DNA of 43,570 nt from IMG/VR virus record IMGVR_UViG_2522572023_000011. The stretch is one strand, 5' to 3'. Numbering within the stretch: the first letter of the stretch is position 1; the number at the start of each line of letters is the position of its first letter. Shown one piece after another: positions 27,001 through 30,000 of this stretch. This stretch comes from a virus. Its lineage: Duplodnaviria > Heunggongvirae > Uroviricota > Caudoviricetes. Position numbers: made by a program.

Positions 27001-30000
27001 GCACCGCAAAACGGTTAGCCGCTTTTTTCGCCGCGTCACCTTTTGCCGATTTTTTACCGGCATCCCCTTTTTTGTGGTGCGTGAACTGCGCCAGCTTATA
27101 AGCCGCATCCAGCGCCAGCCTGGGGTCGGTATTAATGTTCTCCACCAGAAGACGCCCCATCGCTTTCACCGGATCGGGAAGACCGTCCTCCATATACTCA
27201 ATACCAGGAGATATCACCACGGGCGGTGGCATCTCCGGATTTGTTTCGTCCGGCTGTGGTATTGCAGCCGCCTCACGGCGACGGGGTTTATCCTCCTGCT
27301 CTGATTTTTTCTGCCGGTAAACAGGAACCTCATCCACCTCCACCGTCTCGCATTGTTTACGGGCTATAAACGCAAGCACCTCCGGATCTTTTGCCAGCTG
27401 CGAGCCTTTAACCCTGGCGGTCTTCGCCGAATAACCAGCGGCAATGGCTGACGCTGTTTTGTTTTTCCCGGACATGAGCGCCAGCGCAAATTTTCGTTTT
27501 TGCGTTGTCAGCACAGCCTCCTCCCGGGTCCAGAACGCACTCAGCCGGGTATGGTTCAGCCCATTTTTCCCGGCGTCTCATGCCGCAAATGTTAACTGCT
27601 GCCTGGTTAACATTTGCTGAAAAAGCCAGTTAACATTTTTTCCGCACAACAAACTGAATAATAAAGATAAAAACCGCAAAAATGCCCGGACAGCCAGTTA
27701 ACATGTTAACTGCCCTGAAACGGGAATTTTTTCTCTGCGTGAGAGGGGGCGCGGTGTCCGGAGCGATCGTTTTTTTCGCCGGATGATCCCCCCCCCCGGG
27801 GCGGGTCACAGTCCGATGATATCGTCTGCCCTGCCATGACCTCCGGACACCTCCGGCAGCGTCGGGTCCGGCATACCACCCGCCGCTTCACGAGCAGACT
27901 TTTGTCGATGGCATTCGGTACAGAGCGTCCAGAGATTCGTCTCCTCATTACCACCACCGAACTGAAGTGCAATTCGGTGATCGAGTTCACTGTCACAGAG
28001 GTCAACCACACGACCACAGAGACAGCACTGCCCGGCATCCCTGAGCCAGATATGACGCTTGAGGGAAACACGTGCACTGCCACTGACACGACGCTGTTCA
28101 CCCTTCAGAATATTCACCCGCCGGGTGTTCAGAGTTTTGATTCTGCCCGGTAACGTACGAAGCACAGCCATGTAAAATCCTCGCCATATAGCTTGTCACC
28201 AGAGGAAAGAAAATGTCATCGAAAAACCGGCCCCGCAGAACAACAACCCGCAACATCCGATTTCCAAACCAGATGATTGAACAAATTAACATCGCTCTTG
28301 ACCAGAAAGGTTCAGAAAATTTTTCTGCGTGGGTCATTGAATCTTGCCGCCGGGAGCTGGCAGCAGACATAAAATATGCCCGTCAGTTGACTATAAAAAA
28401 GAATGATACACAGTATGCTCTGCGATGGCTGTTCATATAACTATTTCTTTATATTGCTGAATTTATAAAAACTCACAGACATTAGCTGTATTAATTCCGA
28501 ATTGAAATAATCAGCCATATAGAATAAAAATAAAGCATAACAATAATAATCTTCTACCCAATCAGTACATTACTGCTGTGACTCCAACACGGCAGTTTTT
28601 TTATTGAACAGATTCCAGTTTCTTCCACCATCGCACCGGACGGGCGACCATGAGGGGAGAACGCCGCGCTCCGTTTACGCGGTAAACCCCGGTGTGTATC
28701 GTTTTTGATTATCCCCGCACACTCTCGCAGAGGAGTCTCCCTGTCGGGCTGCGGTCTCTGTTAATGCAGGAATACGGCGACGATACGGCGCATCAGCAAA
28801 ACTTAGTTCAGGCACTGAGTGCGGATATAGTCCTGTGCCCCTTCCAGCTGCTTCTGCATTGTCATCAACCGTTCTCTGAGGATGAAATAATCCCGTTCAG
28901 CGGTGTCTGCCAGTCGGGGGCCGGTTGCATTATCCACGCCGGAGGTGCCGGTGGCTTCACGCACGGTACCGGAGCAGGTGGCGTTGATCCGCAGGCGCTT
29001 ACGACCAGCGGCAACATCAGCACGCAGAGTTTCATTTTCAGCTCTCGCATCGGCTAACTCCCTCGAGTATTTTGCATCGAGCGCAGCAACATCACGCTGG
29101 CGCACCTGCATGTCAGTAATGGTGGCATTCGCCTGTTCCAGCTCTCTGGCTTTTTTATCGCGCTGCGCTTTGTAGGTGAGCGCGTTGTCACGGTAATGGT
29201 TTGTTGCCAGCCACAGCGCACCACAGCCAACCGCCAGGACAATAATCACCACACACAGAACACGGTTCATCTCTCTTTCACCCCACCAGTCCCGATAACG
29301 TCAGGACTCGCCAGGCGGTGGAAAAGAAAATGGCAACCAGCATGACTAAAAATGAAATGCCGACAAGTACACAGAGGCTCTTCACCAGCGTTATGAGTTT
29401 ATCTGATATCATTAGCCACCCCATCAATCCGCCTTTGTTATTTTCCCTTTGCCTGTATCAGCCAGGACAAAATCAATCAGCATATGCGCTTCATTTACCA
29501 GCGTACGGATTTTTGATACATGCGCGGCTTTAACCTGTTTCCACTCATTCAGCCCGGTAGCAAACACACTGGCAATGTTTTTATCCCGTTTCATGTCAGC
29601 ACAAGCCTGGTTGAGTTCTTCCATCACGCTCATTTTACGGGGATTAACGACAAAACCCTTCGTCCAGTACTCGTAAAGAACATCGTCGCACTCTTCCTGA
29701 TACCGGATGACCTTATCGCGGATTTCGGGTTTTACTTTGTTGGGATTAATGGTTTGTAGCCAGCCGGCAAGTTTTCGAAGTGGCATGGACACCATATTGC
29801 GTTGTTTCCCATCCTCAGCAACCATAACGATTTCCGTTATAGTTGACGCAAAACGCTGTCTTAACTTAGCCAACTGTGATTGCCAGGCCAGCCCCATCCC
29901 CGCAACGACAGGTTTCATGGGAACGTATGGTTCGCCATTATGGTTAACTACATAAAGAGAGTTGCCGTGAAACGGCACGGCCATCATATTCATCGGTTAT

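Follow-up and report, generated by a model that had tools for sequence, protein, structure and literature searches.

A probable HK97-type cos site with a conserved poly-G tract in a lambdoid Stx-type Escherichia coli prophage

The packaging genes of the window (the whole stretch of viral DNA analyzed here, 43,570 nucleotides) lie on the minus strand in the order HNH, intergenic region, terS, and terL. The HNH endonuclease (positions 27806 to 28171; 121 aa), which is the accessory nuclease for packaging, matches Pfam HNH (PF01844; E=7.2e-7) and is 70% identical to the HNH protein of FSL SP-016 and 37% identical to that of Vibrio phage Baybae (E=7e-12), with marginal similarity to HK97 gp74 (E=0.11). 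The small terminase gene, terS (26951 to 27514; 187 aa), has a GTG start at 27514 and a GGAGG ribosome-binding site and encodes an N-terminal helix-turn-helix of the SPP1/SF6 G1P type. Terminase_2 (PF03592) is the sole Pfam match of TerS (E=1.7e-8; 35.7 bits, with a cut-off of 26.1; residues 2 to 57 aligned to profile positions 1 to 56), no Nu1-type match was found, and residues 10 to 53 give weak matches to the DNA-binding domain of SF6 G1P (PDB 4ZC3, 2CMP, and 3ZQP; E=0.18 to 0.73). The same N-terminal domain is conserved in the TerS proteins of SP-016, Bcep176, fEg-Aba01, and PHB09, and a search of genome contigs for TerS confirmed no relatives. The large terminase gene, terL (25293 to 26954; 553 aa), encodes Pfam TerL_ATPase and TerL_nuclease domains. 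HK97 TerL (6Z6D) is the single phmmer match of TerL in the PDB (E=4.1e-10; residues 84 to 534), and identity to the TerL proteins of Xp10, Bcep176, fEg-Aba01, Baybae, PHB09, and Pseudomonas phages is 48 to 60%. A divergent DUF3950 gene (28213 to 28440), whose small product looks like a DNA-binding protein, adjoins the HNH gene.

The locus is 95 to 99.7% identical to those of Stx-converting siphophages, e.g., BP-4795, 2851, and 1717, and gene order, protein families, and this near-identity support its identification as a cos module. The packaging module is of the HK97 type, consisting of an HNH nuclease, TerS, and an HK97-like TerL, with the small HNH gene directly upstream of cos and terS as in HK97; TerS itself shows no similarity to HK97 gp1 (BLASTP E=1.2) and belongs to a different family. 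The description of this region as cos-like in an earlier note was right. Positions 27585 to 27805 (minus strand) are likely to form a three-subsite cos of an HK97-type module in a lambdoid Stx-type E. coli prophage. The annotation of cohesive ends in the phi330 record has no bearing on this site (the permutation of the record is arbitrary, with its end within terS), and two articles that were considered (PMC12315714 and PMC2669165) deal with cos sites of the lambda type and have no relevance to an HK97-type cos.

The cut appears to fall between the GTTAAC repeats and the C10 run, such that the packaged left end would start with CTCACGCAG at 27743. Neither this position nor the conserved placement of the C10 run featured in the earlier note. 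By homology to the mapped ends of relatives, cosN is a putative 10-nt 3′ cohesive end, 5′-CGCGCCCCCT-3′, at 27744 to 27753 (minus strand), with predicted nicks at the 27744/27743 boundary on the minus strand and the 27753/27754 boundary on the plus strand. The right-arm spacer, which separates the G-tract from the cut (27754 to 27787, minus strand), comprises ATCATCCGGCG, an A7 tract (27776 to 27770), CGATCG, and a conserved GGACAC (27759 to 27754); conservation of CGATCGC..GGACACC extends across the two enterobacterial clades, and that of GGACAC to fEg-Aba01 as well. On the other side of the cut lies the left-end core, CTCACGCAGAGAAAAAATTCCCG (27721 to 27743, minus strand), which would be the first DNA packaged, includes an A6 tract (27732 to 27727), and is homologous to the starts of relatives.

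The placement of the cut at 27753 to 27743 rests on the convergence of five lines of evidence. The ends of the Stx1-converting phage Lys8385Vzw (MT225100) were classified by PhageTerm as cos with 3′ ends, the 10-mer being reported as CGCCCCCCCT; the record terminates in CGCCCCCCCT and begins with CTCACGCAG, and its ends align to 27744|27743. The published description of this phage ends at the 10-mer and includes no repeats, G-tract, or cos substructure. Acinetobacter phage fEg-Aba01 (MT344103) has a 10-nt 3′ end, CGCCCCCCAT, determined with PhageTerm and confirmed with a heat/cool gel test; GGACAC precedes CGCCCCCCAT, and the left-end core is homologous to that of the window. The Bcep176 record has CGCACGTTCC at both termini, the 10-mer lying directly 5′ of CTCACGCGCAGAAAA, and the left end of the Xp10 record is CCCATTCGCAGAAAAATTACCCG. 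In an IMG/VR contig (L126/L167), an Illumina adapter is directly fused to this left end (CTCATTCGTAGAAAAAATCC; CTCATTCG...). The starts of Baybae and Bcep176 are also homologous to the left-end core of the window. The 10-mer of the window differs by one base from that of each mapped relative and occurs in variants within the window's own clade. A search for right-end contigs (GGACAC followed by Illumina adapter) gave eight matches, four of them directly fused, but none encodes a relative of HNH, TerS, or TerL, and they were considered unrelated. Moraxella phage Mcat1 has no recognizable cos core upstream of TerL.

Between the cut and terS lies the GTTAAC array. The hexamer occurs at 27591, 27606, 27629, 27697, and 27705, i.e., 5 of the 13 sites in the window, where 7.8 would be expected overall; the Poisson probability of at least five within 125 bp is ∼6e-10, or ∼2e-7 after correction for all windows. 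The report in the earlier note of five palindromes in repeated extended contexts within ∼120 bp upstream of terS was confirmed (27591 to 27710): all five lie within the 8-mer ATGTTAAC, which is found only in this cluster in the 43.6-kb window (1.2 expected), four of the five share CAGTTAACAT, and the five copies of the unit, with the consensus (C/T)(A/G)GTTAACAT(T/G)T, are located 34 to 159 bp inside the left end. Sites 1 and 2 (27695 to 27712) together make up a perfect palindrome of 18 bp, CAGTTAACATGTTAACTG, which covers +32 to +49 relative to the cut, with GTTAAC starting at +34 and +42. Sites 3, 4, and 5 (27585 to 27640; units at 27640 to 27627, 27617 to 27604, and 27598 to 27585) have GTTAAC at +110, +133, and +148, and sites 4 and 5 are perfect inverted copies of each other over 12 nt, separated by 9 nt (27585 to 27596 and 27606 to 27617). 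The last GTTAAC is 77 nt upstream of the terS GTG (27514). The spacer between sites 1-2 and sites 3-5 (27641 to 27694) is seen on inspection to be AT rich and rich in T-tracts, and it may be bent; the IHF consensus WATCAANNNNTTR was not found at up to one mismatch in 27515 to 27805. Among 55 distinct sequences of the clade, 29 of the 30 hexamer columns are invariant, the remaining column differing in a single sequence, and the palindrome of sites 1 and 2 has minor variants in 3 of 18 columns. Conservation within the clade cannot alone single out the sites, because the intergenic region varies hardly at all in its terS-proximal half and the entire stretch from 27640 to terS is highly conserved.

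On the opposite side of the cut, a poly-G tract (G10 on the minus strand, C10 on the plus strand) occupies 27788 to 27797. The C10 and following GGGG (27788 to 27801) lie after the HNH stop codon, as described in the earlier note, and the C10 is the only run of at least eight C or G in the window; the G10 starts 8 nt past the stop codon (27808 to 27806) and 274 nt before terS, and its 3′ edge is 45 nt before the cut. It is a positionally conserved cos element of variable length. No other part of the intergenic region varies as much as this tract, which ranges from G5 to G11 in 80 loci of the window's clade and from G5 to G12 in 76 loci of the SP-016 clade, and the proposal that it is slippage prone is supported by this range over the ∼156 related loci. 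Its cut-proximal edge nevertheless lies 42 to 45 nt before the cut across both enterobacterial clades. A tract of 5 to 12 bases is present in every lineage examined, HK97 and Alize included, ending at −42 to −57 and mostly at −43 to −46: −43 in HK97, −46 in Xp10 and fEg-Aba01, −44 in Bcep176 and vB_E264, approximately −42/−43 in PHB09 and Baybae, −57 in CF53a, and 50 to 57 nt before the cut in Pseudomonas phages. The tract also persists with unrelated flanks and where no HNH gene lies directly upstream, and it is therefore not tied to the HNH stop codon.

Comparison across phages bears on the role of the array. In phages of Escherichia, Salmonella, Acinetobacter, Burkholderia, Pseudomonas, and Bordetella, all six of which encode the same TerS N-terminal domain, a GTTAA-type element is first encountered at +31 to +36. 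Relatives have two to five GTTAA(C) elements; the element at this offset is GTAAAC in the Salmonella phage FSL SP-016, there are three direct AAGTTAAA repeats in fEg-Aba01, and Bordetella has four copies. No GTTAA element was found in Xp10, Baybae, or HK97, in which the TerL, HNH, or cosN core is homologous but the TerS N terminus is different. The co-occurrence of the element with this TerS domain, and its loss where TerS differs, supports, short of proof, a function as TerS sites. The GTTAAC repeats are thus probably docking sites of TerS N-terminal helix-turn-helix domains, and the suggestion in the earlier note that they bind TerS gains comparative support from this co-occurrence, the palindromes being candidate sites. 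GTTAA elements extend over the ribosome-binding site and start codon of terS in most relatives (with the element covering the codons Met-(Ala)-Leu-Thr), whereas in the window's clade terS starts ∼190 bp further downstream and the elements number five; a coding or translation-initiation constraint could explain part of the conservation of the element. An argument from codon usage (TTA in the element) is weakly supportive, and TTA also occurs elsewhere in the terS genes of Pseudomonas and Burkholderia phages. The conserved A-tract at +12 to +17 could, by analogy, be the primary TerS site and the array could have another role, because the mapped TerS site of HK97 (+15 to +29) includes an A/T tract. 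A literature search for GTTAAC in connection with terminase found nothing relevant, and a description may exist elsewhere.

The placement of the element over the terS start in relatives raises an alternative in which the repeats are functionless debris, i.e., duplicates of an ancestral terS start (ATG-TTA-AC, Met-Leu-Thr) left behind when terS moved by ∼190 bp. The element does contain the terS start codon in FSL SP-016 and most relatives, and ATGTTAAC at 27704 opens just a 24-codon open reading frame in the window. Two of the five copies are inverted, however, and the units reach into sequence that was ancestrally noncoding; moreover, the hexamer columns are held almost invariant while neighboring columns vary, and phages of Burkholderia, Pseudomonas, Bordetella, and Acinetobacter have a noncoding GTTAA 5′ of the start codon, its distance from the cut being constant. 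Debris is an improbable origin for the array. The inverted repeats might instead act as RNA hairpins in the late transcript, controlling terS translation or mRNA processing. Gene order suggests that the region is transcribed within the late operon, and a perfect 12-bp stem between sites 4 and 5, closed by a 9-nt loop, is present in the minimum-energy and the centroid fold alike, but the fold is ordinary overall (z=−1.25; 21 of 200 shuffled sequences fold as well), no Rfam family matches (the best match, HgcF, reaches 16.6 bits where the gathering score is 70), and the stem is ∼70 nt away from the terS ribosome-binding site. Relatives have either direct repeats, as in fEg-Aba01, or single copies that cannot pair, and we regard an RNA function as slightly more doubtful still than debris.

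A role as operators for a protein other than TerS, such as the DUF3950 product or a host factor, is the most improbable of these alternatives. It draws on the small, apparently DNA-binding protein encoded beside the HNH gene on the opposite strand and on a weak sigma-70-like match made of two GTTAAC sites, yet ATGTTAAC occurs nowhere else in the window, and the element follows the TerS N-terminal domain over six genera and vanishes when that domain is replaced. The promoter-like match itself is on the plus strand and directed away from terS and was taken as chance; no terminator-like sites were found in the region. The homopolymer has a rival reading of its own, as a neutral slippage tract or assembly error with no packaging role. 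Homopolymer length is error prone in many sequencing chemistries, the count of 10 in this assembly could be off by about one base, and lengths of 5 to 12 among close relatives would suit a neutral tract. Length polymorphism among close relatives is also characteristic of phase-variable homopolymers, but the tract lies in neither a reading frame nor a promoter spacer, and no promoter- or terminator-like site overlaps it. The presence of a G-tract in all ∼156 enterobacterial loci and in HK97, Xp10, Bcep176, vB_E264, fEg-Aba01, CF53a, Alize, PHB09, and Baybae refutes the suggestion in the earlier note that a sequencing artifact accounts for the run. Its retention with unrelated flanks and without a preceding HNH gene, and a cut-proximal edge at 42 to 46 nt in most lineages, likewise count against neutrality, which is unlikely because both presence and position are kept across TerL proteins that are only ∼48 to 60% identical.

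The machinery that cuts or translocates the DNA probably recognizes the G-tract, because the tract follows the TerL/HNH/cosN core rather than the type of TerS. Its location on the last-packaged side, 42 to 46 nt from the cut in most lineages and 50 to 57 nt in Pseudomonas phages, is that expected of a signal like cosQ or pac1. A joint reading, which we offer tentatively as possible rather than probable, is that HK97-type cos sites include the poly-G tract as a functional subsite and that cos is built from a TerL/HNH core and a swappable TerS array. The core would consist of the G-tract, cosN, and the A-tract, and the TerS-specific GTTAA array would be the exchangeable part. Under the joint reading, TerL, HNH, or the portal, but not TerS, would recognize the poly-G tract, which would signal pausing or positioning from ∼45 bp before the cut and make termination cleavage efficient, drift in length being tolerated on its distal side. 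A literature search that included HK97 papers found no description of a G-tract in HK97-type cos sites, although one may exist elsewhere. The cos site itself is of an ordinary kind, and the conserved G-tract is a modest but testable lead.

The sequence of events at such a site can be sketched as follows. An oligomer of the SPP1/SF6-type TerS docked on the array would mark the DNA for packaging and place TerL on cosN. TerL, aided by HNH, would then make staggered nicks and leave a 10-nt 3′ overhang, 5′-CGCGCCCCCT, as the enzymology of HK97 suggests, and the packaged chromosome would start at CTCACGCAG (27743) and be reeled in towards terS. The G-tract, on the side packaged last, could speculatively act as a cosQ-like termination or positioning signal or as a pause site; its length would drift by slippage between G5 and G12 while the cut-proximal edge stayed fixed.

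Among characterized systems, HK97 resembles the window in its homologous TerL, the small HNH gene just before cos, the A/T tract just inside the left end, a G9 run ending 43 nt before the right end, and the 10-nt 3′ overhang that it has in common with close relatives of the window. It differs in that the TerS of the window is unrelated to gp1, being of the Terminase_2 family, in that the similarity of HNH to gp74 is marginal, and in that HK97 has just one TerS site, of 15 bp (+15 to +29), which includes the A/T tract, in contrast to the five-copy GTTAAC array over +34 to +159. The cos regions of Lys8385Vzw, BP-4795, 2851, and 1717 are the closest matches (∼99% identity for Lys8385Vzw); in Lys8385Vzw, unlike the window, the 10-mer is CGCCCCCCCT, one base different from CGCGCCCCCT, and the tract is G7 rather than G10. 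The likeness to fEg-Aba01 comprises GGACAC before the 3′ end, a G6 tract ending at −46, a first GTTAA at +34, a homologous TerS N-terminal domain, and a TerL with 53% identity, but its three repeats are direct, rather than five units of mixed orientation, and its terS starts at +73.

The pac system of SPP1/SF6 (G1P) shares the Pfam family of its TerS, Terminase_2, with the window. The several boxes bound by SPP1 TerS flank the cut and extend over the ribosome-binding site and 5′ coding region of its own gene, and these boxes over the terS start resemble the placement of GTTAA in most relatives of the locus. SPP1 differs in its headful (pac) packaging and TerL, whereas the window has a predicted precise cos cut and HK97-type TerL and HNH. 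The layout is also analogous to cosQ-cosN-cosB of lambda, in which a termination-side element and a nicking site are followed, before terS, by repeated TerS sites. There is, however, no sequence similarity to lambda, and a cosQ-like role of the G-tract is an analogy; the 12-nt 5′ overhang, Nu1-type TerS, and IHF site between R sites of lambda are all absent from the window, and the ends of relatives are 10-nt 3′ overhangs. In the pac1 element of herpesviruses, a G-rich run beside an A/T-rich element directs cleavage at a fixed distance, and the G-tract and subsequent A-tract of the window, set at a constant ∼45 nt from the cut, may be likened to it in layout, with no homology claimed.

Many lambdoid prophages of E. 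coli O157, Stx-converting ones among them, share this packaging module. Accurate knowledge of its cos end, of the sequence variants of that end, and of the recognition elements is relevant to the cross-packaging of DNA between coresident prophages, to the placing of genome ends in deposited phage genomes, and to the design of cos-based transduction vectors. For groups that work on HK97, the comparison raises two questions: does the G9 run located 43 nt ahead of the cut in HK97 have any importance, and is cos specificity modular, with a TerL/HNH core and a TerS array that can be exchanged? The G-tract, if functional, would represent a third cos subsite for this lineage of large terminases and a point of comparison with herpesvirus pac1.

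The locus is very probably a cos site with its cut at 27753-27743. It belongs to the HK97-type, HNH-assisted, 3'-overhang cos class, as judged by its TerL, by where its HNH gene lies, and by the ends mapped in close relatives, but departs from that class by carrying a TerS of the SPP1/SF6 type. On the minus strand, an HNH endonuclease gene (28171-27806; Pfam HNH) is separated by a 291-bp intergenic region from terS (27514-26951; Pfam Terminase_2, residues 2 to 57), followed by terL (26954-25293; Pfam TerL_ATPase and TerL_nuclease) and, 3' of terL, by a prohead protease-capsid fusion gene (23292-25229; one 645-amino-acid ORF with Peptidase_S78 and Phage_capsid). 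The sole neighboring gene not on the minus strand is a DUF3950 gene just upstream of HNH (28213-28440, plus strand; 75 amino acids; Pfam E = 3e-17), and the N-terminal half of its product looks like a ribbon-helix-helix DNA-binding fold. The only solved-structure match of TerL is the HK97 large terminase (6Z6D; E = 4e-10). TerS has no similarity to HK97 gp1, and at its N terminus it is similar to the SF6/SPP1 G1P DNA-binding domain. The region is 95 to 99.7% identical in 93 phage records, mostly Stx1- and Stx2-converting siphophages, together with BP-4795, 2851, 1717, and YYZ-2008.

The earlier note missed the cut, which five lines of evidence place between the GTTAAC array (27591-27710) and the C10 run. 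The 10-nt end of the near-identical phage Lys8385Vzw, sequenced from virions, is already known: PhageTerm identified a cos phage whose cohesive ends are 3', with CGCCCCCCCT as its cos sequence (PMC7946995). Its GenBank record terminates in ...GGACACCGCCCCCCCT and opens with CTCACGCAGAGAAAAAATTCCCG, matching the minus strand of the window base for base (27759-27744, and 27743 downward); the 10-mer of the window, CGCGCCCCCT, is 1 base off. Acinetobacter phage fEg-Aba01, with a TerL 53% identical to that of the window and a homologous TerS N terminus, has 10-nt 3' cohesive ends (CGCCCCCCAT) termed “HK97 type,” called by PhageTerm and then verified on restriction gels by a heat/cool test (PMC7354433); its record starts with CGCACGCACAAAAAAAATTCCC and ends in ...GGACACCGCCCCCCAT. 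The record of Burkholderia phage Bcep176 carries the 10-mer CGCACGTTCC at both ends, then CTCACGCGCAGAAAATTTTCCC, and that of Xanthomonas phage Xp10 starts with CCCATTCGCAGAAAAATTACCCG and ends in ...CCGGACAGTCT. In addition, an IMG/VR contig of 42,956 bp from the Salmonella FSL SP-016 clade opens with Illumina adapter sequence (...GCTCTTCCGATCT) joined directly to CTCATTCGTAGAAAAAATCC, which points to a physical end of the DNA at the base shared by the other left ends. From the ends of these relatives, we infer a prophage cohesive end at 27753-27744 (minus strand) and a packaged left end that starts at 27743. The untrimmed adapter at the 5' end of this contig (CACTCTTTCCCTACACGACGCTCTTCCGATCT; bases 1 to 32 of IMGVR_UViG_3300015186_000014, loci L126 and L167) is a contaminant, yet a useful marker of the physical left end of a packaged genome. 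A contig from an isolate-genome assembly in the window's clade (L030, IMGVR_UViG_2681813226_000009) begins with TCTCACGCAG, 1 base before the inferred left end; its source may be free ends of phage DNA in the culture that was sequenced or simply an assembly break beside the C-rich 10-mer.

The interval was inspected in both orientations, and counts on the window bear out, as written, both the GTTAAC cluster and the C10 run of the earlier note. GTTAAC occurs at 13 sites in the 43,570-bp window, 5 of them within 120 bp (27591, 27606, 27629, 27697, and 27705). The Poisson probability of at least five sites in 125 bp is ∼6e-10 at the window-wide frequency, or ∼2e-7 when corrected over all windows, and ∼8e-9 when estimated on local base composition. 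All five clustered sites are enclosed by ATGTTAAC, which is absent from the rest of the window, and four of the five also have CAGTTAACAT in common; as a consensus, the unit reads (C/T)(A/G)GTTAACAT(T/G)T. Relative to the cut (positive offsets toward terS), the sites start at +34, +42, +110, +133, and +148, with the start of terS at +230. A perfect 18-bp palindrome, CAGTTAACATGTTAACTG (27695-27712), is made by the overlap of sites 1 and 2, and sites 4 and 5 make up an inverted repeat of 12 nt, also perfect, with a 9-nt gap. The ATG of the palindrome opens a strongly hydrophobic 24-codon ORF (27704-27630, minus strand; MLTGCPGIFAVFIFIIQFVVRKKC) that may simply be incidental to the T-rich spacer; its polymorphisms among relatives are a mixture of synonymous and nonsynonymous changes.

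Among 55 distinct clade sequences (the window plus 54 variants from 62 of 84 loci), 29 of the 30 hexamer columns are invariant, which alone is weak evidence, because the terS-proximal half of the intergenic region is nearly invariant throughout. It is the more distant relatives that are informative. In the FSL SP-016 clade, overall identity is 49% for TerS, far higher in its first 60 residues, and 70% for HNH; the cut and terS lie just 39 bp apart, with GTAAACATGTTAAC at +34 containing the terS ATG. Every phage examined that has the TerS N-terminal domain M(A)LT...AAI.AGYS shows the GTTAA(C) pattern: GTTAATGGCTTTAAC from +36 in Burkholderia phages Bcep176 and vB_E264, GTTAATGGCGTTAAC from +31 in Pseudomonas phages CF53a and Alize, four GTTAA(C) elements (+23, +35, +48, and +58) in Bordetella phage PHB09, and three direct copies of AAGTTAAA (+34, +47, and +58), along with TTAAC within codons 3 and 4 of terS, in fEg-Aba01. 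Xp10, Vibrio phage Baybae, and HK97 have a homologous TerL or HNH but different TerS N termini, and the array is absent past the cut in all three. Xp10 and Baybae also retain the cosN core; at the equivalent place, Xp10 has two copies of GGCCATTTCC. The array therefore tracks the TerS DNA-binding domain rather than TerL or HNH. The C-terminal tail of TerS, GKK..AAKKAA..F..PPP (26951-27100, minus strand), is kept in Xp10 (locus L179, 326-631; 2R, E = 0.002) and is faint in Baybae gp17 (locus L190, 1382-1786), the N termini of both being unrelated; this fits a tail that binds TerL and covaries with it, the DNA-binding domain being swapped.

Co-occurrence, position, and family precedent suggest that the five GTTAAC units are probably TerS docking sites, equivalent to cosB. 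In SPP1, the archetype of this TerS family, gp1 binds sites that flank the cut and overlap its own gene at the ribosome-binding site and 5' coding region (PMC6316719), an arrangement with which the GTTAA pattern agrees. Part of the conservation has another source, as GTTAA overlaps Met-(Ala)-Leu-Thr codons in most relatives, so that coding or translation-initiation constraint contributes to it. In the window's clade, terS is shifted ∼190 bp away from the cut and starts GTG-CTG-ACA, without a TTA Leu codon, and the cos-proximal element is retained as the perfect palindrome, with three further copies. There is little support for a possible action of the inverted repeats at the RNA level: the fold z score is −1.25, a search of the region against Rfam returned no family, and the direct-repeat or single-copy versions of relatives are unable to pair. 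Unlike lambda cosB, the array has no IHF consensus in its AT-rich spacer and is thus not a lambda-style cosB. In HK97, TerS has been mapped to one element (+15 to +29), of which an A/T tract forms part (PMC11331095). An A-tract at 27732-27727 (+12 to +17) is conserved even in phages with a different TerS and may contribute to contact with the TerS channel or with TerL; TerS docking remains our preferred reading for the GTTAAC units themselves.

The C10 run (27788-27797) is the sole C/G homopolymer of at least 8 nt in the window. Read on the minus strand, this G-tract starts 8 nt past the stop codon of HNH, and 45 nt separate its end from the cut. Its length ranges from G5 to G11 in the window's clade (80 loci; mode, 7 to 8; G10 in 6) and from G5 to G12 in the SP-016 clade (76 loci), and no other part of the intergenic region varies as much. 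The earlier note's “slippage-prone” is thereby upheld, and the exact count in any single assembly may be inexact. A sequencing artefact, its other suggestion, does not account for the existence of a tract found in every relative examined; its cos-like designation stands, and its TerS-site reading gains support by comparison of relatives. The cut-proximal edge lies 42 to 45 nt from the cut in both enterobacterial clades, and the tract persists in SP-016-clade members with an unrelated AT-rich upstream flank and no HNH gene directly before it. Elsewhere it ends at −43 in HK97 (G9), −46 in Xp10 (GGGTGGGGG), −44 in Bcep176 and vB_E264 (G5), −46 in fEg-Aba01 (G6), ∼−42 in PHB09 (G9), ∼−50 in Alize (G5), and ∼−43 in Baybae, where G8 directly follows the HNH stop and precedes TGATCATC as in the window. 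The longer offset of vB_Pae_CF53a (G8, −57) is explained by a terminator-like hairpin with a perfect stem, AAAATATCCGGCTTCGC-ctgaa-GCGAAGCCGGATATTTTT, between tract and cut (last 60 nt of its locus, L187). By these comparisons, the G-tract goes with the TerL/HNH/cosN core rather than with TerS type.

The G-tract lies outside any reading frame, and no promoter-like or terminator-like sites overlap it, so the usual logic of phase variation is inapplicable. We lean slightly toward a packaging function. Termination in HK97 depends on slowing at cos; given this, its last-packaged side, and its fixed proximal edge, the tract may be a cosQ-like positioning or pausing signal. Herpesvirus pac1, a G-rich/T-rich element, directs cleavage at a fixed distance (PMC13595911), and the G-run followed by an A-tract in the window resembles it by analogy rather than demonstrated relationship. 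In PPompW prophages (L086, 3290-4748; PPompW_132418, LC567822), the IS110-family element ISEc20 lies inside the poly-C/G tract, equivalent to window position 27792, with C-runs on both sides (GATCCCCC[IS]CCCCCCCGAAAGG); HNH and lysis genes are absent, and tRNA genes and Q directly follow ISEc20. The arrangement points to ISEc20 as an element that targets poly-C/G tracts and that disabled cos in these prophages.

The searched literature, HK97 packaging papers included, makes no mention of a G-tract in HK97-type cos; two features drawn from comparison of relatives, a positionally conserved, length-variable G-tract shared with HK97 and the GTTAA(C) array as a TerS-specific module, appear undescribed there. 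Further, at least four cohesive-end variants coexist among near-identical E. coli prophages: across 80 loci of the window's clade (L005 to L084), the 10-mer is CGCGCCCCCT in 46, CGCCCCCCGT in 16, CGCCCCCCCT in 14, and CCGCCCCCGT in 4. Strains with several such prophages could therefore vary in end annealing and in cross-packaging between prophages.
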